NCBI GenBank assembly: GCA_030647255.1
Contig: JAUSJK010000048.1
Span: 32,540-96,539 of the forward strand
Origin: a bacterium
GTDB taxonomy: Bacteria > Patescibacteriota > Microgenomatia > UBA1406 > GWC2-37-13
Direction: 5' to 3'
DNA: 64,000 nt
Part shown: piece by piece, positions 3,610 through 60,944 of the stretch
Layout: every line of letters starts with the position of its first letter
Position numbering within the stretch: the stretch's first letter is position 1
The notes under the pieces: generated by a model
What the model was told of the DNA's origin: nothing
The model's input: only the letters and a program-made list of their open reading frames with translations
Database searches by the model: none
Made by a program: the position numbers and the translations under genes

Positions 3610-5970
3610 GTGGCAAAAAATATTCCTACGGTTTTTGTCGTTTTCGGGGCAACTGGAGATCTCATGTCCAAGAAAATAATTCCTGCATTGTTTCATCTCT
3701 ACGAAAAAAATAAACTTCCTTTGATGTTCAGACTGATTGGATTTGCGAGAAGACCCCTCACTCAAGAACAATTCCAGCGCTATTGTAAAGATATGCTTCG
3801 ATCTCACGGTGAAGAAGATATGAAAAAAGTAGATGAATTTTTAAGATCATGTCTTTACCAACAAGGGAATTTTACACATAAAGACGATTATGTAAAGTTG
3901 GCAACCGTGATGGGAAGGATAGACGGAGAATGGAAAGTATGTTCCAACAAACTTTTTTATCTGGCAGTTCCTCCTCACTATTATTCCGGAATATTTAACC
4001 ATCTGGCGTCATCGGGACTTACACTTCCCTGCGGGCCCGACGAAGGATGGACCCGGGTTCTTGTAGAAAAGCCATTTGGGAAGGATTTGGAGACTGCTGA
4101 AGATCTGGACTTACTTCTGGCAAAACTGTTTAAAGAAGAACAGATCTATAGGATCGATCATTATCTCGCCAAAGAAATGCTACAAAATATTCTTCTTTTC
4201 CGATTTTCAAATAATCTTTTGGAACCGAGCTGGAACAACAAATTTATAGAAAAAATAGAAATAAAACTGCATGAAAAAATTGGCGTTGAGTCACGGGGAG
4301 TATTCTATGACGGACTGGGAACTTTAAGAGACGTAGGACAAAATCATTTACTTCAGATGCTGGCTCTTATCACTATGGAAGCTCCGATGAAATTCGATTC
4401 CGAGTCTGTCCGCCCTTCCAGAGCAACCGTTCTTCACACACTTCAAAAAATGTCGAATGAAGAAGTAAAAAAATATACGTTCAGAGCTCAATATAAAGAA
4501 TACACACGAATCAAAGGTGTACTTCCGCAATCAACGACAGAAACATATTTCAAACTTAAAACCTATTTGAATCACCCCCGATGGGAAGGAGTGCCCATAT
4601 TCATGGAAAGCGGGAAACGTCTAAAAAAACAAGTAAAAGAAATTACCGTTACATTCAAACACGTTCTTCCGTGTGAATGTTTAACAGATGAGATGCATAC
4701 GTATAGAAATAAGGTTATTTTTCAGTTGGAACCACATGAAAGAATCCAGGTGGGATTTATTTCCAAAAAGCCCGGTCTTGATCTGCAGGTTCAGGAAACA
4801 ATGTTAGGCTTTAATTATCGTTCAAAAAAGAAACGACGGCAATACGTTGAAGAATACGAAAAATTACTTCTCGATTGCATAGTGGGAAACCAGCTTTTAT
4901 TTTTGAGTACGGATGAGGTAAAGGCGATGTGGAGATTTACAGATCCTATTTCTTCTGTCTGGAATAAAAACAATGTGTCTCTTCACGTTTATAAGCCGGA
5001 TTCGAATTCATTTATAAAAAAGGCTGAATATATATATGATGCAAATAAAACAGGGATACTTACTGCAAAAGAGGTGGTAATCGTCGGTCTTGGAAAAATG
5101 GGTGGTAATATAGCGAGACAGCTTATCCGTAAGGGATGGAATATCTACGGGTACAACAGGACGAAGGAAGATACTCAGGAGTTGGAGAAAGTCGGCCTCA
5201 AAGGAATATATGAAATTACGGATATTAAAGAAAAAATTACCAATCCAAGAATAATATGGATGATGGTGCCGGCGGGACCAGTATTTGACGAGCTTGTATT
5301 TGGAAAAAAAGGATTGGTTGAGGTACTGGACAAAGGAGATATTGTGGTAGATGCGGGTAACTCCTTTTATAAAGACTCGATAAGAAGAGGAAAACTTTTG
5401 TCTCAAAAAGGGATCAGGTTTTTGGATATCGGAGTTTCGGGTGGTCCGATGGGAGCTCTCAACGGAGCGAGTCTTATGGTAGGCGGAACAAAAGATCTAT
5501 ATGAATATCTGAAACCTTTGTTGACAGATATCGCGGTGCCCGAAGGAGTTCAGTTTTTTGAGGGTGTCGGTGCCGGACATTTTATCAAAATGATACACAA
5601 CGGGATAGAGTACGGTATGATGCAGGCTATCGCCGAAGGATTTGCCATTCTGAAAAAATCACATTACTCACTGGATTTGAAAAATATATCTCATGTCTAT
5701 AATCATGGGAGCGTTGTCGAGTCAAAATTGATGAGCTGGTTAATAACTGCATTTGAGATATATTCGGATGAGTTAAAAAATGTTTCCGGATCAGTGGCGC
5801 ATACGGGAGAAGGAAAGTGGACGGTCGAAACGGCTGAAGAACTGGGAGTAAAAGTGAAAATTATCGAGGAATCATTTAAATTTAGGGTAGCTTCAGAGAA
5901 AAATCCTTCATATACTGGCAAGATTCTTTCTGCTCTTCGCAATCAGTTTGGAGGACACAGCATAAAGTAA
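3610..5970 (+). CDS. zwf: fusion protein: glucose-6-phosphate dehydrogenase (N, about 480 aa) plus short-type 6-phosphogluconate dehydrogenase (C, about 300 aa)
   Basis: N-terminal part has VFGATGDLMSKKIIPAL (NADP site) and RIDHYLAKE (G6PD active-site box). C-terminal part has VVIVGLGKMGGNIARQL, DAGNSFYKDSIRR and GAGHFIKMIHNGIEYGMMQAIAEGF (6PGDH signature). It is a single uninterrupted 786-aa frame. Confidence 0.85.
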   Translation: MAKNIPTVFVVFGATGDLMSKKIIPALFHLYEKNKLPLMFRLIGFARRPLTQEQFQRYCKDMLRSHGEEDMKKVDEFLRSCLYQQGNFTHKDDYVKLATVMGRIDGEWKVCSNKLFYLAVPPHYYSGIFNHLASSGLTLPCGPDEGWTRVLVEKPFGKDLETAEDLDLLLAKLFKEEQIYRIDHYLAKEMLQNILLFRFSNNLLEPSWNNKFIEKIEIKLHEKIGVESRGVFYDGLGTLRDVGQNHLLQMLALITMEAPMKFDSESVRPSRATVLHTLQKMSNEEVKKYTFRAQYKEYTRIKGVLPQSTTETYFKLKTYLNHPRWEGVPIFMESGKRLKKQVKEITVTFKHVLPCECLTDEMHTYRNKVIFQLEPHERIQVGFISKKPGLDLQVQETMLGFNYRSKKKRRQYVEEYEKLLLDCIVGNQLLFLSTDEVKAMWRFTDPISSVWNKNNVSLHVYKPDSNSFIKKAEYIYDANKTGILTAKEVVIVGLGKMGGNIARQLIRKGWNIYGYNRTKEDTQELEKVGLKGIYEITDIKEKITNPRIIWMMVPAGPVFDELVFGKKGLVEVLDKGDIVVDAGNSFYKDSIRRGKLLSQKGIRFLDIGVSGGPMGALNGASLMVGGTKDLYEYLKPLLTDIAVPEGVQFFEGVGAGHFIKMIHNGIEYGMMQAIAEGFAILKKSHYSLDLKNISHVYNHGSVVESKLMSWLITAFEIYSDELKNVSGSVAHTGEGKWTVETAEELGVKVKIIEESFKFRVASEKNPSYTGKILSALRNQFGGHSIK

Positions 5971-5974
5971 CAGA

Positions 5975-5997
5975 TTGAACATGTAACTTGTAACATT
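5975..5997 (-). repeat. GTTACA tandem motif copy a (AATGTTACAAGTTACATGTTCAA on the minus strand)
   Basis: 21/23 identical to 60392-60414 and related to 12081-12110. Intergenic. Confidence 0.5.
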
Positions 5998-6001
5998 CTC
6001 T

Positions 6002-6108
6002 GTCATCCTGGTAAGTCCTTCGGCGTTGCTCAGGACGCATCCAGGATCGTTGTCAACGAGTTAACTACGATTCTGGAGTCGTCGTGCCTCCTTCCCAGAA
6101 TGACGACG
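6002..6108. repeat. GTCATYCTGG double-hairpin repeat, copy 1 of 6
   Basis: gtcatcctgg...ccaggatcg / spacer tcaacgagttaactacg / attctgg...cccagaatgacg. Homologous to 10351-10449, 17671-17801, 19353-19448, 23079-23119 (partial) and 60264-60378. Confidence 0.85.
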
Positions 6109-6151: not shown

Positions 6152-6772
6152 TTACTTATATCCTGGGGGTAGATTTTGCGGAGTATACTGGCCGGGGACG
6201 TAGTTAGGGTTGATTTGAGGATTCGCGTAGGGATTGATCTGCGGATTAGCATAGGGATTGATATTCGGGTTTGCCATAGGATTGAAATTTGGATTTGCCA
6301 TCGGGTTAAAATTCGGATTTGACATAGGATTCGTATACTGCTTCGGCTGTTGGTTGAGCTGTTGTTGTATGAATTGTTGCTGAATCTGTTGCTGTTGCTG
6401 AATGTACTGTTGTTGGGCCTGTTGTTGTAGTTGTTGAACCTGTTGTTGCTGTTGTATTTGAGCCATGCATCCTGGGAGAAAGGACATGTACTGACATTGA
6501 AATGGAAGTATAGGAGGAGTGATGGATAGGATAATATATTTAAGATTATTTGTATTATTATTTGAGTTGGCTGTCGATGGAGCACTTTGGCCTGTTTGAG
6601 TTGTTCCACCTACACCTTGAGTAGAAGGTACTTGAATTGTCTGAGAAGGTTGAGCTGTCGGTTGATTTTGTTTTTGTTGAATATATTTTGCCGTACCAGA
6701 TATTCCCAGAGCTCCGACGACGGCGATAATGAGAATAACAATGGGTGCAAATCCTTGTGAATATACTTTCAT
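6152..6772 (-). CDS. membrane-anchored Q/N-rich low-complexity protein with tandem NP(N/Q)(I/F)NP(M/Y)A repeats
   Basis: The start at [23 protein letters not shown] supplies a TM anchor. This is followed by a [27 protein letters not shown] tract and [42 protein letters not shown]. The underlying DNA is tandemly repetitive at 6190-6330. Confidence 0.6.
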
Positions 6773-6795
6773 ATAAACATTATACCAGATTGTAT

Positions 6796-7356
6796 TTATC
6801 TGCAATTTTTCCACAAGCCTTTTTCGTTGATTATAGCCTCGTTTTGGGCTTTTCTAAAAATGCTGGCGTATTCTACGTCGGGTGGAAATGTCGCCATATG
6901 TGCAAATCCTTCTTTTACCAAGTATTCATTTAAAAACATACCTTCGGGAGATGCATCTGTCGGAACATATATATATCTCAGCAATCTTCCATATCTATCT
7001 GTTTCAGAGATATCTTTTTTAAGCGTGATTTCTTTTCCTTTGACGAGCTTTTCATTTTCATCTTTTGCTTCTTTGCCAAAGCACTGAACAGGTTTTAGAG
7101 GATGGTGAAGTTCAGGTGTATCGATACCTATGTATCGTACCCGTTGTCCATTTTCGAGTTCTATAGTATCGCCATCAACAACAAATTTGACTCTGGCTGA
7201 ACTTGTTGCATGGGGCTGATTGATAGTTGTGATCGGCGGAGGGGTGGAAGATATAGTGAGTGTATTCAAACTGAGTGGAATATTGGAAAAGCGAAGAAGA
7301 TAGCCTACGACTATACTTATAGCAAGAAGAAATAATTTTTTCTTATATCTTTTCAT
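6796..7356 (-). CDS. secreted or anchored thermonuclease (staphylococcal nuclease, SNase fold)
   Basis: N-terminal hydrophobic anchor, then [27 protein letters not shown] and [10 protein letters not shown], the classic SNase motifs. Confidence 0.8.
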
Positions 7357-7453: not shown

Positions 7454-7765
7454 TTGTCTGAAAATGTTAGGGATATGATTATGTTTAATATTATTTATAT
7501 CTCTTCACGGACTAGTATGCTAAATGCAACTATTATGAGTAAAGTCAGTTTTGGAGAATCAGAAACTATAGAGTTTAAAGAATCTTTGAGTGAGCTTCCA
7601 GAAGGAGCAGAAACCTTATGTGGATTTGAAAATCAAAACGGCGGAGTATTGTATTTTGGGATTAAAAATAATCATGAAGTGATGGGGATTCCTAATATTA
7701 CGGAGAAAACTATAAGAGATTTATCACAACATATTTATGATAATCTAGAGCCACAAAATAATTAA
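7454..7765 (+). pseudogene. N-terminal fragment of an AlbA_2/Schlafen-type (divergent AAA-4) DNA-binding protein
   Basis: FGESETIEFKESL...GGVLYFGI matches the AlbA_2 domain start. Only 103 aa are present, followed by about 220 nt without a long ORF. Confidence 0.45.
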
Positions 7766-7985
7766 CGTAATAAAAAAATCCCTCTACCCGTGGTGGCCCA
7801 AGTACTATTGAAAAATTCATGACCTTATCCGATTTTCCTGTCGAAGAGTCATCCAAATATGCAGCCATATATACCTTTGGCAAACCTCAAATGTTAGATC
7901 GTACCCAAGAAGATATCCTCCACTACGACGAACACCTCGTAGTCGATACTCTAGATGGGATTTAATTAGCTTTTTATTCGTTAGC

Positions 7986-10350: not shown

Positions 10351-10449
10351 CGTCATTCTGGTGAGGAATAGTTCGACAGGCTCACTATGACGACGCCAGA
10401 ATCGTAGTTAATGTAGTTGACAACGATCCTGGACAAGCCAGGATGACGG
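10351..10449. repeat. GTCATYCTGG double-hairpin repeat, copy 2 of 6
   Basis: cgtcattctgg...ccagaatcgtagttaatgtagttgacaacgatcctggacaagccaggatgacgg. The right unit is a 7-bp stem ATCCTGG/CCAGGAT with loop ACAAG. Confidence 0.85.
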
Positions 10450-15276: not shown

Positions 15277-15687
15277 ATGGACTGTGTTTTCTGCAAAATT
15301 ATCAAAGGCGAGCTACCGTCGTACAAAATCTACGAGGATGAGAATTTTTTGGGATTTTTAGATATCCGTCCATTAAACCCGGGTAATTCAATTCTTATTC
15401 CAAAGAAACACTATCGCTGGGTATACGATGTGCCAAATTTTGGAGAGTACTGGGAAGCCGCTAAGAAAATTGTCATCGCGACGGAAAAAACGATCAAACC
15501 AAATTCAATTAACTTTTTGACCCTAGGTTATGAAGTGCCACATGCTCATATTCGTATTATTCCTCGATTTGATAACGATAATCATACCGACGGAATTCGT
15601 TTAAGTGCGATAAAAAATATATCGAAGGAAAGAATGGAAGAAATAGCCAATAAAATTAGAGAGGCAATAAAATCAGTTAAAAGTTAG
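15277..15687 (+). CDS. HIT (histidine triad) family protein
   Basis: CVFCKIIKGELPS and the triad-like VPHAHIRIIPR. Confidence 0.8.
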   Translation: MDCVFCKIIKGELPSYKIYEDENFLGFLDIRPLNPGNSILIPKKHYRWVYDVPNFGEYWEAAKKIVIATEKTIKPNSINFLTLGYEVPHAHIRIIPRFDNDNHTDGIRLSAIKNISKERMEEIANKIREAIKSVKS

Positions 15688-17408
15688 AAACAATACCATT
15701 TATCTTTCTTCAGTTGTTCTGCCCGTAGAAGAAGTAGAGGATTTTGCAGTTGTTGATTATAAAGTGTTTTTTGTATCGTACAGGACTGTAGGTTGAGTTC
15801 GGCGGCTTTATCAAACGCTTTTTGAAACGATTCATTCTGCTCAAATAAAGAGAATATGCGGGCCAATCGTAAGAGATATAAATAATCACTCTGTGTGTCT
15901 ATCAGATTATTGAAATATCCTGCTGACAAACGAATGTCTTCTACTTTTTTATCCTTCGTAAAAATCACCATGGCCCGATCAAGATATACCATCCGCCAAC
16001 TTGTATCTTTATACATATGTATGAGGAATGTTTCCGCCCAAGGGGTTTGATCCGTATGGGCAAACACAACTGTTCGTATCTGATATTTTTCAAATATGTG
16101 TTTTTGAAGTTCGGGATCCTGCTGAAGTTTTATATAGATATCTTGAATAAAATCTTTCGGGTAGGCTTCGGGACGGTTATCAATAAATACTTTATATTGA
16201 GGATATAAACGGTAAATAAGATATCCGCCGATGTCAAAATTATTGAATATATTTCCATCAATTTTATTTTCCAGCATAAAATCACTGGCTTTTTTACCGT
16301 CTTCCAGGAGGTGATATCCAAACCGTGATTGAATATCAAAAGTGCGGGAGTATACATTTCCAGCGAAGAAATATATTCCTAAAGGAAGAATGCAGAGTAA
16401 GATTGTATATCCGACGGTGCGAATAATATTGATGTCTTTTTTTATCCGCTTAAAAAGGAAAGATAAAAAATCAGCATACGCGATGCTTAATACGGGAATA
16501 GTCGTCAGTACGAAAAAAGGCATGTGTCGTATCTGCTTAAATGCCAGAAAATAAAAAAGAAGGAGGATTAATGCTTCAATATATTTTTTCTTTATTGCAA
16601 GAATGAGCGCACCAAAAAGTATGAGAGGAGAGAGAAGAAAAAAGTATGTAATGAGAGGATTAAAGGTGACTGCGTGTAAAAATAAAAGGTCCTGATTTTC
16701 AACGATAGGATAGCCATAATTTTGGAAGATGGATAAAGGATAGAGAAGTCCTTGGATTCCATGGGGGTTTATCAATAAGGCGATAAAAGACGTTATGAGT
16801 ATTGCGATTATTTTTTTATCTTTAAACAATTCTTTCTTATGAATAATGAGCATTTTGAATATAAGAAAAAAAGCAAGCATCACCCCGAAGACGAATGAGA
16901 TGTGAAAATTAATCCATAAAAATAGAGATATAGGAAGAAAAATAAGCAATTTTTTAGATGACGGATAGTGGAGGAGAATCATCAACATAAGTGAAAATAG
17001 CACATATCCGAATAATTCAGGCCGTATATCCGATCGTTCAAGAAGGAGGGGGACAAAGATGGTAGTAAAGAAAACAGCGACAAAAAAGCCACCTTTTTTT
17101 ATTGAGGTGTAAGTGCCTATTCCTACGGCCGCCATAACTAATAGTACTTTAAGGAACATCAGCAGAGGGAATCCCAAAAGAGCATTCATCACATAAAAAA
17201 TGACTTCGGAAAGCCAGTGATGGTTGAAGAAAGGGTAGTCTTGATTGGTAAAAGAAAATAAATTAGTCGAAGGGACAGATCTGGTACTGAGAATAATCTC
17301 TGCGAGTTTGATATGTCTCCCTAGATCCTGATTAAAATCTCGACTCCAGGTGAATGTGACGGAGAATATAAACAGAAATAATAATCCAAGAATTATTTTT
17401 TTGAACAT
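15684..17408 (-). CDS. large polytopic membrane protein, possibly a GT-C-like glycosyltransferase
   Basis: 574 aa with more than 10 hydrophobic helices and a soluble C-terminal region. No diagnostic motif was recognised. Confidence 0.35.
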   Translation of the reverse strand: MFKKIILGLLFLFIFSVTFTWSRDFNQDLGRHIKLAEIILSTRSVPSTNLFSFTNQDYPFFNHHWLSEVIFYVMNALLGFPLLMFLKVLLVMAAVGIGTYTSIKKGGFFVAVFFTTIFVPLLLERSDIRPELFGYVLFSLMLMILLHYPSSKKLLIFLPISLFLWINFHISFVFGVMLAFFLIFKMLIIHKKELFKDKKIIAILITSFIALLINPHGIQGLLYPLSIFQNYGYPIVENQDLLFLHAVTFNPLITYFFLLSPLILFGALILAIKKKYIEALILLLFYFLAFKQIRHMPFFVLTTIPVLSIAYADFLSFLFKRIKKDINIIRTVGYTILLCILPLGIYFFAGNVYSRTFDIQSRFGYHLLEDGKKASDFMLENKIDGNIFNNFDIGGYLIYRLYPQYKVFIDNRPEAYPKDFIQDIYIKLQQDPELQKHIFEKYQIRTVVFAHTDQTPWAETFLIHMYKDTSWRMVYLDRAMVIFTKDKKVEDIRLSAGYFNNLIDTQSDYLYLLRLARIFSLFEQNESFQKAFDKAAELNLQSCTIQKTLYNQQLQNPLLLLRAEQLKKDKWYCF

Positions 17409-17670: not shown

Positions 17671-17801
17671 CGTCATTCTGGGGAGGAGCAGTTCGGCAAG
17701 CTCACTGTGAATTACGACGACTCCAGAATCGTAGTTAATTATAATATTTACAACGATCCTGGACAAGACCCAAAGGGTCCCCTTCAGGGCCAGGATGACG
17801 G
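17671..17801. repeat. GTCATYCTGG double-hairpin repeat, copy 3 of 6 (enlarged right loop)
   Basis: cgtcattctggggaggagcagttcggcaagctcact...ccagaatcgtagttaatt...acgatcctggacaagacccaaagggtccccttcagggccaggatgacgg. Lies in the divergent yidD/trmD intergenic region. Confidence 0.85.
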
Positions 17802-17835: not shown

Positions 17836-18600
17836 ATGAAGATCACCATCATTACTCTTTTTCCCAACATGGTCAGCGGGTTTTTTAACGAAAGCATTGT
17901 CAAAAAAGCCCGGGAAAAAGGACTGGTTGAAATTGAACTCGTGAATTTACGGGATTTTGCTATCGACTCATATGGGAGTGTGGACGACAGACCGTATGGT
18001 GGAGGAGCAGGGATGGTGATGCGGGCGGATGTTGTCTATGCGGCGTTAGAACGTTGTAACATCAAAACTTCAAAAGGTTCGAAATATAGGACTCTTCTTA
18101 CTTCACCTCGAGGTATACAGTTTAGCCAAAAAAAAGCGGAAGAATATTCGACATTGGAACATATTGTTATTATCGCCGGGCATTACGAAGGAATAGATGA
18201 AAGGGTCAGTGAGTTCGTCGATGAGGAGGTTTCTTTGGGAGACTTTGTCATGACAGGCGGAGAGATGACGGCCGCCGCAATTACAGACTCTGTCGTTCGG
18301 CTTTTACCCGGGGTTCTCAAGAAAGATACGGCAACTGCTGAAGAAAGTTTTTCTTATGCTTCGATTATTCGAATAATCGAAGCAGTCGGTGAAAATGAGA
18401 CACTTACGGCTTTGAAGAAAAAAGGAGTAGACCGTGTCAGACTGCTTGAATACCCCCACTACACGAGACCGGAAGACTTTATGAATAAAAAAGTTCCCGA
18501 TGTTCTTCTTTCAGGAAACCATAAAGAAATAGAAAAATGGAGAATTCAAAAGGCATTTGAAGAAACTCTCAAAAGAAGGCCTGACCTTTTGCAATTATAA
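17836..18600 (+). CDS. trmD: tRNA (guanine37-N1)-methyltransferase
   Basis: ITLFPNM, DDRPYGGGAGMVM and GHYEGIDERV. Confidence 0.9.
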   Translation: MKITIITLFPNMVSGFFNESIVKKAREKGLVEIELVNLRDFAIDSYGSVDDRPYGGGAGMVMRADVVYAALERCNIKTSKGSKYRTLLTSPRGIQFSQKKAEEYSTLEHIVIIAGHYEGIDERVSEFVDEEVSLGDFVMTGGEMTAAAITDSVVRLLPGVLKKDTATAEESFSYASIIRIIEAVGENETLTALKKKGVDRVRLLEYPHYTRPEDFMNKKVPDVLLSGNHKEIEKWRIQKAFEETLKRRPDLLQL

Positions 18601-19352: not shown

Positions 19353-19448
19353 CGTCATCCTGGTAAGTCCTTCGACTTTGCTCAGGACGCATCCAGGATC
19401 GTTGTGAATACTATAATTAACGAGGATTCTGGACAAGCCAGAATGACG
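19353..19448. repeat. GTCATYCTGG double-hairpin repeat, copy 4 of 6
   Basis: cgtcatcctggtaagtccttcgactttgctcaggacgcatccaggatcgttgtgaatactataattaacgaggattctggacaagccagaatgacg. Sits between the ABC ATPase and permease genes. Confidence 0.85.
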
Positions 19449-19473: not shown

Positions 19474-20175
19474 ATGTTTACACTTTATAAAAAAGAACTG
19501 AATTATTATCTCAATAATCCGATAGGGTATATCGTGGTAATTTTATTTGGCGTGTTTGCCAATTTTCTTTTCCTGAAAGATATATTTGTCGTCGGATCGG
19601 CTTCGATGCGGCCTTTTTTTAGTCTATTGCCTTGGCTTTTTCTTGTATTTATACCGGCATTATCTATGCGCAGTATTTCTGAAGAAAAACGTACAAATAC
19701 TATCGAAACACTCCTTTCATTACCTATATCCGAAACGCAGATCGTCCTGGCCAAATTTTTAGCACTTATGTCGCTCGTGATTTTAGGTCTAGTCATGACG
19801 ATAGGTCTGCCTGTTTCCCTCTCCTTACTTACGAAGATATATTATCCTGAAATAATTGTCGGTTATCTGGGAATGATATGTATTGGAGGAGCGATTGTTT
19901 CTGTGTCGATGCTTTTCTCTTCTCTGACCAAAAATCAGGTGGTCGCATTTTTATCATCCATATTGGTGGTATTTATTTTTTATATCATTGGGACTGATTT
20001 TAGCGCATCAGTACTGCCGAAGTTTATTCAGGATTTCGTAAGCTACTATAGTCCTTTATACCAACTGGAGAACTTCATGAAGGGAATACTCGATATAAGG
20101 TCGATATTTTATTTCATTAGTTTAATCATAGTCTTTCTTGTCCTCACGGTTATTGATTTGGAAAAAAGAAGTTGA
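19474..20175 (+). CDS. ABC-2 type transporter permease (GldF-like)
   Basis: 233 aa, six hydrophobic segments, directly downstream of the ATPase. Confidence 0.7.
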   Translation: MFTLYKKELNYYLNNPIGYIVVILFGVFANFLFLKDIFVVGSASMRPFFSLLPWLFLVFIPALSMRSISEEKRTNTIETLLSLPISETQIVLAKFLALMSLVILGLVMTIGLPVSLSLLTKIYYPEIIVGYLGMICIGGAIVSVSMLFSSLTKNQVVAFLSSILVVFIFYIIGTDFSASVLPKFIQDFVSYYSPLYQLENFMKGILDIRSIFYFISLIIVFLVLTVIDLEKRS

Positions 20176-20176
20176 T

Positions 20177-21676
20177 ATGTTTAGAAAATTACAAAAAATA
20201 AATCTGCTTCACCAGTTACGTCTTGATACGTTTAAAAAACAGACGGTCTATATTATTCTCATCGGCATATTTATAGGAGCAAATTTCTTATTATCTACTT
20301 TGCCTTTGCGTCTCGATCTATCCAGTGGGGCTGCCTACACGCTTTCACCTTCGAGTAAAAAAATAATCACCAAACTTGATAACAGTGTCGATATCAAATT
20401 GTATGTTTCTTCAGATCTGCCGACCCGCCTGGTACCTATAAAAACGAACGTGGTCGATCTTCTCAATGAATATAAAAGAGCAAGCAACGGAAAAATAAAT
20501 ATCAAAATACTTGATCCTAAAAAAGATGCCACTGCTCAACAGGAAGCCAAAGATGCGGGTATTCCCGAGTTGCAGTTTTCTCAACTGGAACAGGATAAGT
20601 ATGCCGTAACATCGTCATATTTTGGTATCGCCGCCTCGTATGGTAATAAAAAAGAAGTGTTACCCCAAGTAACTGATATAGAAAGTCTCGAGTACAATCT
20701 CACAGCGGCCATATACAAGATGACGCATAAAGAACTGGCGAAAGTTGGCATCATGGGAAAAGAGGAAGCTATTATTCCCCAGCAGGAAGATTTAGGCACA
20801 TTGAAACAGATACTGGCCCAACAGTTTGAAATAAATTATATTGCCGAAGCGTCGGCGGGTGCACAAATTGACACTGCCAATAAAGTTGTCATGCTTTTTG
20901 ACAATAATAATAAAGCATATTCGGAAGATGAGATACAGGTACTCAAAAATTATATTGCCAAAAACGGCAACTTGATTGTATTTTCAGACGGCGAATGGGT
21001 CATGGATGATCTAACAACAGCTCCCGCCACTCATAATCTGGAAAATCTTTTAAGTGCGTATGGAATAAAACTTCATAATGATTTAGTTCTTTCAAGTTCG
21101 GCTGAGATGGTGAACTTCGGTAACCAGATAGTCTCATATTTATCTCCTTACCCCTTCTGGCTCAAGACAAACAACTTTAACGAAAAAATGTCGTATTTTT
21201 CGAATATTACTCAACTGACGTATCCTTGGGTTTCGGCGTTGTCCCTCACAAAGAAAGATGGTATTGAGACAAAGGAAGTGGTTAAGAGTACCCAGTCATC
21301 CTGGGAGCAAAAAAATACATTTATTCTTAATCCACAGGAAATTCCTCAACCGAAGTCACAAGATTTGCAAGAATTTCTCATCACTGCGGAAGCAAAACAA
21401 AAAAACGGAGGCAGTCTTTTAGTCATTCCTTCTTCCCGGTTTGTTAACGACAGATATTTGAGCCGCGGATCGGGGAATATTGAGTTTGTTTTAAATGCTC
21501 TCAATAACTTTGGTTCAGACGGGGCTTTATCGGGTATACGACAGCGGGCAGTTTCTTTTTATCCAATTCCTGATCTGCCTGAACAACTAAAAGATATATT
21601 CAAGTATGCCAATATTCTTCTTCTCCCTCTGCTTCTCGCGGTCTACGGCGGCATACGACTCATGAAGAGAAAATAA
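20177..21676 (+). CDS. ABC-system auxiliary protein (GldG-like)
   Basis: N- and C-terminal TM anchors flank a large extracytoplasmic domain. The ATG at 20177 follows the permease stop at 20175. Confidence 0.6.
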   Translation: MFRKLQKINLLHQLRLDTFKKQTVYIILIGIFIGANFLLSTLPLRLDLSSGAAYTLSPSSKKIITKLDNSVDIKLYVSSDLPTRLVPIKTNVVDLLNEYKRASNGKINIKILDPKKDATAQQEAKDAGIPELQFSQLEQDKYAVTSSYFGIAASYGNKKEVLPQVTDIESLEYNLTAAIYKMTHKELAKVGIMGKEEAIIPQQEDLGTLKQILAQQFEINYIAEASAGAQIDTANKVVMLFDNNNKAYSEDEIQVLKNYIAKNGNLIVFSDGEWVMDDLTTAPATHNLENLLSAYGIKLHNDLVLSSSAEMVNFGNQIVSYLSPYPFWLKTNNFNEKMSYFSNITQLTYPWVSALSLTKKDGIETKEVVKSTQSSWEQKNTFILNPQEIPQPKSQDLQEFLITAEAKQKNGGSLLVIPSSRFVNDRYLSRGSGNIEFVLNALNNFGSDGALSGIRQRAVSFYPIPDLPEQLKDIFKYANILLLPLLLAVYGGIRLMKRK

Positions 21677-21690
21677 GTTATAATTGTCAC

Positions 21691-23097
21691 ATGGTAAGAA
21701 CACGTATCGCTCCATCTCCGACAGGAAATGATATCCATATAGGCAATCTTTACACAGCGCTTATCAACTGGGCATTTGCCAAAAAAAATAAAGGTTCGTT
21801 TATCATTCGAATTGAAGACACAGATAGAACCCGTCTCGTAGAAGGAGCGGAGGAAAAAATACTTTCTTCATTTCTTGCCTATGGACTGGACTATGATGAG
21901 GGACCCGGAAAAGAAGGTAAGTATGCTCCTTACAGACAATCAGAACGGTTAAGTATCTACAAAAAACACGCCGATGAATTAATACAAAAAAGAGCCGCCT
22001 ATTACTGTGTCTGCACGAAGGAACGTTTAGATGAGATAAGAAAAATTCAGCTGACAGAAAAAAAAGTACCCCGATACGATAAACATTGTTTAACGAATCA
22101 AGTAGAAGTACAAAAACAAATCAAGAAAGGTACACCTTACGTAATACGTCTGAAAGTACCCGAGCATAAAAAAATAGTTGCCGAAGATTTATTGAGAGGT
22201 GCGATTGAATTTTCTTCAAACGATCTTGACGATCAGGTTCTTCTTAAATCTGATGGCTACCCGACGTATCATCTGGCCGTTGTTGTTGACGATACGCTGA
22301 TGGAGATAACACATGTGATACGGGCGGAAGAATGGCTTTCATCCACGCCAAAACATATTCTTCTTTACGAAGCGTTTGGTTGGCAGAAACCTATATTTGT
22401 CCACCTGCCTATTTTACGAAACCCTGACCGATCTAAACTTTCAAAAAGAAAAAATCCTGTCTGGGCGTCGTGGTATCTGGAACAAGGGTATCTGCCGGAA
22501 GCGGTTCTCAACTATCTATCACTTATGGGGTGGTCTCATCCGGAAGGAAAAGAAATATTTTCTCTGGAAGAATTTATTCGGGTGTTTGAACTTAAAGATA
22601 TAAAGACCTCAGGGCCTGCATTCGACCAAGTGAAGCTTGAATGGATGAATGGAGAGTACATACGAAACATGAAACATGAAACATTAAACATGAAACTTTT
22701 AGATTTTATTGGACCACAATATCCCAAGGAATTAGTGGAAAAAACGATACCTCTTATTCAGGAGAGGATTAAGAAATTGTCCGATTATCTTCCTTTGACA
22801 GAGTTTTTTTTCAAAAGGCCAGAGAAGTACGAAATAGATATGAGTAAGTATAAAGATATTCTTAAAAAAGTAGGGGAGAAAATAGAAACGGTTACAGAAT
22901 GGAAGTCGAAAGAAATAGGGGAGGCGATGCAAAGTGTCGCGACAGAGGTGGGGATGAAGAATAGTGAGTTTTTTATGATGCTCAGAGTCGCCATCACAGG
23001 AAAAAAAATCTCCCCCCCTCTTAACGAGTCGATGGAAATACTAGGGAAGGAAGAATCAGTTAGTAGGGTAAAATCAGCGACGACGCCAGAATCGTAG
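21691..23097 (+). CDS. gltX: glutamate--tRNA ligase
   Basis: RIAPSPTGNDIHIGN (HIGH), KLSKRK (KMSKS), 468 aa. The last codons lie inside a fragment of the hairpin repeat. Confidence 0.9.
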   Translation: MVRTRIAPSPTGNDIHIGNLYTALINWAFAKKNKGSFIIRIEDTDRTRLVEGAEEKILSSFLAYGLDYDEGPGKEGKYAPYRQSERLSIYKKHADELIQKRAAYYCVCTKERLDEIRKIQLTEKKVPRYDKHCLTNQVEVQKQIKKGTPYVIRLKVPEHKKIVAEDLLRGAIEFSSNDLDDQVLLKSDGYPTYHLAVVVDDTLMEITHVIRAEEWLSSTPKHILLYEAFGWQKPIFVHLPILRNPDRSKLSKRKNPVWASWYLEQGYLPEAVLNYLSLMGWSHPEGKEIFSLEEFIRVFELKDIKTSGPAFDQVKLEWMNGEYIRNMKHETLNMKLLDFIGPQYPKELVEKTIPLIQERIKKLSDYLPLTEFFFKRPEKYEIDMSKYKDILKKVGEKIETVTEWKSKEIGEAMQSVATEVGMKNSEFFMMLRVAITGKKISPPLNESMEILGKEESVSRVKSATTPES

Positions 23098-23119
23098 TTG
23101 ACTCATTGAAAACGATCCT
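23079..23119. repeat. GTCATYCTGG repeat family, partial copy 5 (central segment only)
   Basis: gacgacgccagaatcgtagttgactcattgaaaacgatcct aligns with the centre of copy 2 (10389-10431). It overlaps the gltX stop. Confidence 0.7.
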
Positions 23120-28248: not shown

Positions 28249-28521
28249 ATGACCTTTTTCGTGTATATGCTTCGTAGTTCTTCAAATGATCTATATATTG
28301 GTCAAACTAATAATCTTATTGAGCGAGAAATTCAGCAAACTTCAAAATCTTCAAAGGCGGCAAAGTTTATAAAAGAAAGATCAGATTTTAAACTTGTGTA
28401 TTTTGAAAAATACAAAACAAGATTAGAATCAATGAGGAGAGAAAAACAACTCAAAGGATGGACGCGAGCTAAGAAAGAAGCGCTTATTAAGGGAGATTTA
28501 AAGCTGTTAAAAAAGTTATAA
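28249..28521 (+). CDS. small GIY-YIG (URI-domain) nuclease family protein
   Basis: FFVYMLRSSSNDLYIGQTNNLIERE is a GIY...YIG motif, and ...EKQLKGWTRAKKEALI follows. The ATG at 28249 is preferred. The upstream part of the tracked ORF is a GTCGAA-rich leader. Confidence 0.75.
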   Translation: MTFFVYMLRSSSNDLYIGQTNNLIEREIQQTSKSSKAAKFIKERSDFKLVYFEKYKTRLESMRREKQLKGWTRAKKEALIKGDLKLLKKL

Positions 28522-28532
28522 AATCGGTTAGT

Positions 28533-28561
28533 TGACAATCTCTTCAACCTCCGAGGTTGAA
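28533..28561 (+). repeat. TGACAATCTCTTC-hairpin motif, copy A
   Basis: TGACAATCTCTTCAACCTCCGAGGTTGAA, with a 7-bp stem TTCAACC/GGTTGAA. 27/29 identical to 34823-34851, and the first 20 nt are 19/20 identical to 33690-33709. Confidence 0.75.
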
Positions 28562-60263: not shown

Positions 60264-60378
60264 CGTCATTCTGGGGAGGAATAGTTCGACAAGCTCACTA
60301 TGACGACTCCAGAATCGTTATCAACGAGTTAACTACGATCCTGGATGCGTCTCGCTTTGCGAGACTTACCAGGATGAC
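60264..60378. repeat. GTCATYCTGG double-hairpin repeat, copy 6 of 6
   Basis: cgtcattctggggaggaatagttcgacaagctcactatgacgactccagaatcgttatcaacgagttaactacgatcctggatgcgtctcgctttgcgagacttaccaggatgac. Confidence 0.85.
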
Positions 60379-60391
60379 ATAAATATAATAA

Positions 60392-60414
60392 AATGTTACA
60401 CGTTACATGTTGAA
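60392..60414 (+). repeat. GTTACA tandem motif copy c (AATGTTACACGTTACATGTTGAA)
   Basis: Ends at the first base of the NUDIX start codon (60414). Confidence 0.5.
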
Positions 60415-60944
60415 TGATGAACACTCTTCCTCAATACAAACGCTTGGTTCAAACATCCGTCACTAATTTTCTTCACTGTGGCGATGAATATCTTTTTATG
60501 GAGAGGCATCCCGGACAGTGGATCAATGCAGGAGAGATGAATGGAATTGGAGGGAGACTTGAGCCGGGTGAAAATTATCTTGACGCGGCGATCAGGGAAA
60601 CCAAGGAAGAAATAGGTCTTAATATAGATCCGAAACAGATAGAATTGTGCGGTATATTAAAAATAGATGGCGGATATGATGAAGATTGGGTCGTCGGAAT
60701 ATTTCGCATCTCTATATCTTCCAAAAATCTGCCTGTGGGTGATAAAACGCTCCAAGGAGATGCCTTACACTGGATACATAAAAATAAAGTTCTGACGGAA
60801 AATTACAAACTAGTCGACGATATTCGCTATATATTCAACGACGTGGCTGAAGGAAATCACCTCTTTTTTATGAACGCTGTATTAGATGAAAATAAAAAAA
60901 TAAAAAGTCATACATACTCAAAAATAGCACGACAGATAAAATAA
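60414..60944 (+). CDS. NUDIX hydrolase
   Basis: Nudix box GGRLEPGENYLDAAIRETKEEIG. Confidence 0.8.
   Translation: MMNTLPQYKRLVQTSVTNFLHCGDEYLFMERHPGQWINAGEMNGIGGRLEPGENYLDAAIRETKEEIGLNIDPKQIELCGILKIDGGYDEDWVVGIFRISISSKNLPVGDKTLQGDALHWIHKNKVLTENYKLVDDIRYIFNDVAEGNHLFFMNAVLDENKKIKSHTYSKIARQIK

Follow-up and report, generated by a model that had tools for sequence, protein, structure and literature searches.

The stretch of DNA analysed here (the window, 64,000 nucleotides in length) contains five full copies and one decayed fragment of a palindromic repeat, all of which lie where the original prediction placed them, to within 1 nt. Each full copy is a doublet of two inverted hairpin units, one with a TCTGG stem (T-type) and one with a CCTGG stem (C-type). 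The copies, for which no strand is assigned, and a small GIY-YIG gene of the same window are as follows.

6002-6104, no strand: doublet copy 1, with a C-type unit at 6002-6049 (loop TAAG-GTCCTTCGGCGTTGCTCAGGAC-GCAT), the spacer CGTTGTCAACGAGTTAACTACG and an inverted T-type unit at 6070-6104
10352-10447, no strand: doublet copy 2, with a T-type unit at 10352-10404 (34-nt loop, GGA..GAC), the spacer CGTAGTTAATGTAGTTGACAACG and an inverted C-type unit at 10426-10447 (minimal ACAAG loop)
17672-17799, no strand: doublet copy 3, with a T-type unit at 17672-17731 (41-nt loop), a spacer and an inverted C-type unit at 17756-17799 that holds the GACCCAAAGGGTCCCCTTCAGGGG module
19354-19447, no strand: doublet copy 4, with a C-type unit at 19354-19401, a spacer and an inverted T-type unit at 19426-19447 (minimal loop)
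23079-23119, no strand: decayed fragment, comprising the 3' part of a T-type unit (..GACGACGCCAGAATCG), a spacer and the start of a C-type unit (ATCCT)
28255-28476, plus strand: small GIY-YIG gene adjoining tRNA-Gln
60265-60378, no strand: doublet copy 5 (the sixth of the original prediction), with a T-type unit at 60265-60317, the spacer CGTTATCAACGAGTTAACTACG and an inverted C-type unit at 60338-60378 (loop ATGC-GTCTCGCTTTGCGAGAC-TTA)

Copy 1 is positioned between convergent genes (a zwf-gnd fusion at 3610-5970 on the plus strand and an ORF at 6152-6814 on the minus strand), copy 3 occupies a divergent intergenic gap (between 15684-17408 on the minus strand and 17836-18600 on the plus strand), and copy 4 sits between tandem plus-strand genes; a public Logan contig breaks within copy 4. 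The fragment overlaps the 3' end of ORF 21691-23097. The repeats are real and non-random, as the terminal decamer GTCATYCTGG occurs 11 times on the two strands of the window as compared to 0.14 times expected from shuffled sequences, and none of 100 shuffles reached 11. The eleventh match, a lone GTCATCCTGG decamer at 21295-21304 within ORF 20138-21676, lacks a partner arm; it is probably a chance occurrence or a relic and was left out of the copy count. Folded as single-stranded DNA, the window copies yield z-scores of -2.4 to -3.7, and their folds alternate between two-hairpin and cruciform-like forms. A GTAAC/GTTAC-rich motif, AATGTTACAnGTTACATGTT, is found just outside two of the copies (5975-6000 and 60390-60420), and is also inserted in some doublet spacers elsewhere in the genome (e.g. 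C58:1741, C14:33564 and C53:362, given as contig:position).

The genome, a 1.22-Mb assembly of 90 contigs (39% G+C, rated 93.6% complete), contains 289 termini and 130 paired elements of 29-279 nt (median ~105) on most of its contigs, and the family is therefore not confined to one contig through assembly duplication. There are 276 hairpin units in all, most of them within the 130 heads-outward doublets, and they account for ~1.2% of the genome. Several contigs end within an element, so the repeat family also explains assembly breaks. When all species genomes were scanned for the unit pattern (~120 chance matches estimated in 596 Gb), clear and numerous matches appeared in Microgenomates and other Patescibacteria (Roizman-, Curtiss-, Levy-, Gottesman-, Davies- and Shapirobacteria among them), as well as some convincing matches with partner units in Nitrospirae and Acidobacteriota; given the number of chance matches expected, singletons in other phyla were left out.

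The basic unit reads C-GTCAT-YCTGG-[loop]-CCAGR-AT-CG. Its variable Y/R stem pair is T-A in 159 units, C-G in 112 and mismatched in 5, and thus covaries in 271 of 276 units (chi-square p ~1e-56). The compensatory arms ATYCTGG/CCAGRAT are therefore borne out, as is the original REP/MITE-like reading insofar as it described a dispersed hairpin family with such arms. The inverted termini are also present, although they extend to 11 nt (C-GTCATYCTGG...CCAGRATGAC-G) rather than the 10 bp first proposed, with a cytosine at position -1 in 82%. The flanks of the unit are asymmetric: on one strand, ~272 of 273 ATYCTGG..CCAGRAT cores are preceded by GTC and followed by C, and a C follows CCAGRAT in 269 of 276 units. 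In the full element, two inverted units face heads outward around an AT-rich imperfect palindrome (CGTAGTTAAT..TTGACAACG, or its complement). Doublets combine a T-type with a C-type unit in 109 cases and two T-type units in 19, whereas C-C doublets do not occur (63, 42 and 23, respectively, are expected under random pairing); this heterotypic excess speaks for copying of the entire doublet. The order of the two unit types does differ between copies, as first described, but this does not represent a true swap, as the element is simply read from the opposite strand. A check for target-site duplications, suggested at the outset, found no direct duplication of 2-8 bp at the element ends and no extended inverted termini there; the outer flanks are T-rich. 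Relatives also carry solo units and abutting doublets that have no spacer.

Tight loops exist as predicted; the full range extends from 5 nt (CTTGT) to 77 nt, and the loops are built from recurring modules. The loops fall into classes with conserved closing bases (minimal CTTGT; TAAG-x-GCAT; GGA..GACT; and, in relatives, CAAG-x-GCGT), and across genera the first and second-to-last loop bases covary (T/A, C/G, G/C). Inner hairpins recur within the loops, and clear examples of nested loop insertions are GGAACGAAG[CCAGGTACAGTCCTGTACCTGG CGAAG]TGACT and CTTGT[ATCGCGAAGCGATA CTTGT]. Small hairpins (CCAGGTACAGTCCTGTACCTGG, CCGAGTTTGACTCGG and TCACGTCAAACGTGG) are inserted in GCGAAGC-type loops with a 5-nt direct duplication of CGAAG or TGAAA (e.g. 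C57:5999-6104 and C12:36392-36514), are found in units of the related genomes G035 and G031 as well, and recur in several genera. Separately, an invariant 20-nt perfect palindrome, CCTGCCTGCCGGCAGGCAGG, is present in 20 identical copies in the genome, none of them in the window (e.g. C14:55953, C42:9164, C51:16567 and C64:1226). Ten copies are located exactly at the stem/loop junction of units and ten in other repeats, mostly an AT-rich repeat (AGATAAAGACTA|..|TCAGATTATCTG). It has the appearance of a mini-palindrome that spread recently and independently, with hairpins as its targets.

Hairpin repeats (the NTS, CGTCATTCCCGCGMAVGCGGGAATCYRG; generally 'SRM' motifs) are known substrates of the Ssn nucleases, ~94-aa single-domain GIY-YIG enzymes that bind them as single-stranded DNA only and cleave upstream of the hairpin, at a distance of a few nucleotides (Chenal et al., Nat Commun 2025, PMC11893778). 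In SsnA, which does not bind RNA, cleavage depends on the three nucleotides that precede the palindrome and binding above all on the C that directly follows it, and ssn genes are typically found between inverted copies of their own repeat (PMC11893778). As originally stated, the window contains no mobilising gene; the associated Ssn-type gene is located elsewhere in the genome. Among nine single-domain small GIY-YIG genes of 78-104 aa, only C62:3-260 (minus strand, outside the window) falls in a clade of unit-flanked proteins. The ORF spans at least 86 aa before the contig ends, its product matches PF01541 (E = 8.5e-11, residues 5-76) and shares 61% identity with each of the homologues L070, L096 and L126, and its orthologues are 91-100 aa in length, a complete one from genome G080 sharing 71% identity; an NCBIfam search of the C62-type nuclease returned nothing specific. 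Upstream of the gene there is a unit followed by CGTTGTTATAAT, and the downstream side runs off the contig. The left unit has GTTGTT in place of CGTCAT, and this genome's own cassette is thus either incomplete or degenerate.

To place this gene in a family-wide context, the C62 protein was searched against 189 genomes of the family. Its 10 closest orthologues (L191-L200; other genera, 61-72% identity) are all flanked within ~100 nt by GTCATTCTGG..CCAGAATC units, often in the arrangement unit-CGTTGTTT-ATG...stop-CAACG-inverted unit. The unit-gene-inverted-unit arrangement also occurs in L096 and L143 and in L070, one of the loci recovered by the all-species scan in which two units directly enclose a GIY-YIG gene of a type whose only close homologue in this genome is C62:3-260. 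The order in L070 at the nucleotide level is GTCATTCTGG..CCAGAATCG-TATAAT..ATG-gene-..TATACG-ATTCTGG..CCAGAATGAC. In view of the inner flanks of the closest orthologues, CGTTGTTT and CAACG, the doublet spacer (CGTTGT...ACAACG) resembles the two inner ends of the cassette brought together. More distant orthologues from the same bacterial family (~50-57% identity, E = 1e-21 to 1e-24) are flanked instead by GTCATTCCCGCGAAGGCGGGAATCC or GTCATCCCCGTGAAGACGGGGATCC, and the upstream copy of L211 reproduces the 28-nt Neisseria NTS consensus without a mismatch. In a maximum-likelihood tree, 14 TCTGG-flanked proteins form one clade (support 89/88), set apart from the NTS-flanked proteins and distant from the other GIY-YIG paralogues of this genome. 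L201 also falls inside this clade; the stems directly beside it are TCCGG/TCCCG, and a TCTGG unit is nearby. On the tree, nuclease clade and stem type are congruent. Close orthologues and units also co-occur: 12 of the 189 genomes carry such an orthologue (E <= 1e-28), and units are found in 11 of these 12 as compared to 19 of the other 177 (Fisher p = 2.9e-9). In the twelfth genome, the units end in ATCA, not ATCG.

Two other GIY-YIG genes are to be kept apart from the cognate nuclease gene. The product of the window gene at 28255-28476 is a distant paralogue, with 31-43% identity to the unit-flanked Ssn-type proteins of other genomes. C45:7206-7430 adjoins an element, but nearly all genomes of the family have an orthologue of it (55-68% identity), and these orthologues have no GTCAT hairpin flanks; the adjacency is probably due to chance. 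Several of the small GIY-YIG genes lie beside or between tRNA genes (C47:13764, C90:1368 and window 28255), and two others (C26:36432 and C42:14727) share a conserved downstream element, ..CCCTGAACGAGC..GCGAGCTGAAGGGAATCTGGTTGGGGTCAC. The window gene is followed at ~28543-28561 by a different hairpin, TTCAACCTCCGAGGTTGAA, which also occurs at C84:10847, C84:11656, C30:40633 and C11:15040 and, as inverted copies, brackets a RAYT-like Y1_Tnp gene on C84. This hairpin and its genes constitute a second, low-copy hairpin-gene system.

The units share several features of SRM hairpins. An HGTCWY head directly 5' of the palindrome is provided by the C-GTCAT of the ~272 cores noted above, and the cytosine directly after the palindrome by the C of the 269 units. 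Inverted units flank an Ssn-family gene in L191-L200, L070, L096 and L143 (the genome's own gene retains the upstream unit only), and the C62-type protein is a single-domain GIY-YIG of ~90-100 aa. The invariant GTC head and 3' C coincide exactly with the positions that SsnA needs for cleavage and binding, respectively. The published SRM pattern, HGTCWYN(0-2)YYVSBRHN(0-5)WNVSBRGN(0-2)RNCYNB, has no match in the whole genome, because the units differ from it in stem composition and have loops beyond the lengths it permits. That pattern was built from 29 genomes (PMC11893778) and is a search heuristic, not a biochemical definition. We consider it probable, judging from these sequence comparisons, that the repeats are a variant of the SRM/NTS hairpins recognised by a cognate Ssn-family nuclease, encoded at C62:3-260, and that the doublets are gene-less derivatives of its cassette.

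The gene-bearing form consists of a unit in plus orientation, a short AT-rich leader, the ssn gene and a unit in minus orientation, and the 130 dispersed copies are gene-less heads-outward doublets with one T-type and one C-type unit. That these doublets keep the cassette inner ends (CGTTGT...ACAACG) suggests that they are REPIN/MITE-like non-autonomous derivatives. How the nuclease could bind, cleave and spread the units we infer by analogy with SsnA. Whenever the DNA becomes single-stranded, during replication or repair or as incoming transforming DNA, each unit would be expected to fold, and Ssn would bind the stem and the 3' C and cut the flanking DNA, a few nucleotides away from the GTC head on its 5' side. 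A doublet would thereby present one cut site per strand, at each of its outer boundaries. Repair of such breaks from other copies could spread the doublets, their geometry being suited to break-induced copying or excision, and incoming single-stranded DNA that carries the motif might also be chopped. The genome encodes comEA and then comEC in a row (C85:5257-7644), comEC being divided over two ORFs with a 4-nt overlap, one with the Competence domain (301 aa) and one with the metallo-beta-lactamase domain (307 aa), and doublets flank the cluster at 5118-5243 and 7689-7815. The presence of both genes makes a Neisseria-like effect on incoming single-stranded DNA possible.

The alternative that survives best is that the hairpins spread and persist independently of the GIY-YIG protein, with ssn as cargo or a frequent neighbour and some other factor mobilising or binding them. 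Genome G039 has 19 units yet no C62-type match at E <= 1e-14, and genus g12, including G031 (86 units, best C62-type match 60% identity), is a further case, so that units do occur where a close Ssn orthologue does not. The degenerate left head of the genome's own ssn gene is in keeping with this reading, and the published work shows cleavage, not transposition (PMC11893778). It would however leave unaccounted for the same stem type at 10 of 10 closest orthologues and the other stems at other clades, the strength of the co-occurrence, and the coincidence of the conserved positions with what SsnA needs for binding and cleavage. We regard it as unlikely.

An RNA-level function, namely an intrinsic terminator, an mRNA-stabilising 3' hairpin or a small structured RNA, is a poor fit and in our estimation very improbable. 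Most copies are intergenic, at a median of 31 nt after a stop codon, and their stems are stable (the z-scores given above, computed as DNA), as such elements would require. However, copies are distributed over tandem, convergent and divergent gaps in numbers of 74, 21 and 15, as compared to a background of 777, 195 and 191, with the result that 3' ends are not enriched and that divergent, promoter-only gaps hold as many copies as expected (15 of 110 versus 191 of 1163). There is likewise no bias in orientation relative to transcription (32 versus 30), no T-run follows the hairpins of the five full window copies, and an Rfam search matched only tRNAs and 5S rRNA. The asymmetric GTC head and 3' C are in addition accounted for by the Ssn model, and RNA is not bound by SsnA. 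Some copies, moreover, lie in frame within ORFs. The statement that every copy is intergenic or at a gene end thus describes most copies, but genome-wide at least three are in frame within real genes: fmt (methionyl-tRNA formyltransferase; C53:16987-18057), a GT39-like membrane protein (C43:2818-4512) and a 2604-aa surface-type protein (C22:6500-7828). In fmt, the element adds 36 residues to the interdomain linker (RHSGKPEETEGASRIVVNSLTTIPESSRLARFPRMT) that are missing from all 13 aligned orthologues of related genera. In the search for strain-level empty sites, no relative exceeded 52% identity when metagenomes were scanned with fmt, and look-ups of exact proteins yielded a single short contig, which breaks within the repeats, or nothing. 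The GT39-like protein has a 30-residue insert, and the 2604-aa protein contains the repeat-encoded ..DPGQARMT.. twice. The background-like gap distribution, the lack of orientation bias and the in-frame copies argue against the terminator or mRNA-stability role first proposed, and for insertion at the level of DNA.

We also considered REP/REPIN elements mobilised by a RAYT (an IS200/IS605-like Y1 HUH enzyme), as in E. coli BIMEs and Pseudomonas REPINs. Heads-outward doublets of two hairpin types joined by a linker resemble BIMEs and REPINs, the elements have no target-site duplication, and a genome search for the RAYT/IS200-like partner suggested in the original prediction did find four PF01797 (Y1_Tnp) genes. 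None of the four, and none of ~30 homologues in 10 related genomes, is unit-flanked, however: a unit terminus lies within 1.5 kb of 0 of the 4 own Y1 genes and 1 of the ~30 homologues, which is the background level. The Y1 genes instead have their own, different flanking hairpins (e.g. TTCAACCTCSGAGGTTGAA), and genomes G038 and G039 have units but no Y1 gene, leaving a RAYT origin hardly credible. The genome encodes three paralogous RAYT-like proteins of ~230-255 aa with weak PF01797 matches (C22:16771-17007, C84:11116-11352 and C30:20274-20513), whose genes are each bracketed by inverted hairpins of their own (ACACCTCGGGGGTGT, CAACCTCGGAGGTTG and CCAACCTGCCAGGTTGG); related genomes have up to 8 such genes.

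A classical TIR-type MITE mobilised in trans by a DDE transposase would account for the perfect 10-11-bp inverted termini and the ~100-bp length, but it can be practically dismissed given the missing 2-8-bp direct target duplication, the lack of any longer element with the same termini that carries a transposase, and the solo units and spacer-less abutting doublets of relatives. A 2.1-kb candidate for a long autonomous element, C28:3891-6048, proved to be two separate elements around ordinary genes.

The variant hairpins and their Ssn-type nuclease extend a type of system that is itself recent, the description of Ssn nucleases and their hairpins dating only from 2025. What is new here is the variant in sequence and architecture, together with a lineage and a density that are not described in that work, the main text of which does not mention CPR or Patescibacteria (PMC11893778). 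The genome is an extreme compact case, with one ssn gene and 276 hairpins in 1.2 Mb, and since the published pattern misses this motif variant entirely, censuses probably undercount Ssn systems in the candidate phyla radiation. For annotation, the repeats explain odd peptide inserts in CPR proteins (e.g. ..PGQARMT..) as well as contig breaks. The heterotypic doublets, the inner-end spacer, the in-frame insertions in essential genes and the nested modules lead to testable predictions for nuclease-driven spread through single-stranded DNA. More speculatively, and with considerable doubt, the ssn cassette and the gene-less doublets might form a true autonomous/non-autonomous pair whose only enzyme is a bare GIY-YIG single-strand nuclease, with smaller palindromes colonising the loops to give a three-level hierarchy of nested ssDNA-hairpin parasites. 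If so, the pair would make up 1.2% of the DNA and remodel proteins by in-frame insertion (fmt and the glycosyltransferase-like protein), and the loop colonisers would be the 20-mer CCTGCCTGCCGGCAGGCAGG and the CCAGGT..ACCTGG hairpins flanked by duplicated CGAAG.

Several known repeat families provide points of comparison. The small dispersed repeats (SDR) that Elhai et al. reportedly described in 2008 as nested in cyanobacterial mini-elements are likewise tiny palindromic modules within the loops of other repeats (here e.g. CCTGCCTGCCGGCAGGCAGG), although they belong to another phylum and their sequences are unrelated to those found here. The Rickettsia palindromic elements (RPE), said to have been described by Ogata et al. 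in 2000 as inserted in frame in protein-coding genes, are also ~100-bp palindromes of a small-genome bacterium, and like the fmt and GT39-like inserts they add a tolerated peptide segment. The likeness to RPE lies in palindromic form, size and in-frame position, and most copies here, unlike RPE, are intergenic; Rickettsia is among the SRM-rich genomes named by Chenal et al. (PMC11893778). With REP/BIME and REPIN-RAYT systems, the family shares oriented hairpins that have a conserved 5' head, two types placed head-outward around a linker, the lack of target duplication, and a single domesticated-looking gene flanked by its own repeats, whereas the associated protein here is a GIY-YIG nuclease, not a Y1 HUH transposase, and the head is GTC, not GTAG. 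The closest resemblance is to the NTS/SRM systems: the CGTCAT head, palindromic stem and 3' ATC tail, the hundreds of copies per genome, the ~95-aa single-domain GIY-YIG gene placed between inverted copies of its own hairpin, and the different hairpin sequences of different nuclease clades are common to both, and relatives in the same CPR family have the exact NTS consensus. In contrast to NTS/SRM, the present system has an ATYCTGG/CCAGRAT stem in two covarying alleles, modular loops of 5-77 nt instead of 3-5 nt, heterotypic T/C doublets around an AT-rich spacer and in-frame gene insertions, and its host is a 1.2-Mb Patescibacteria genome.
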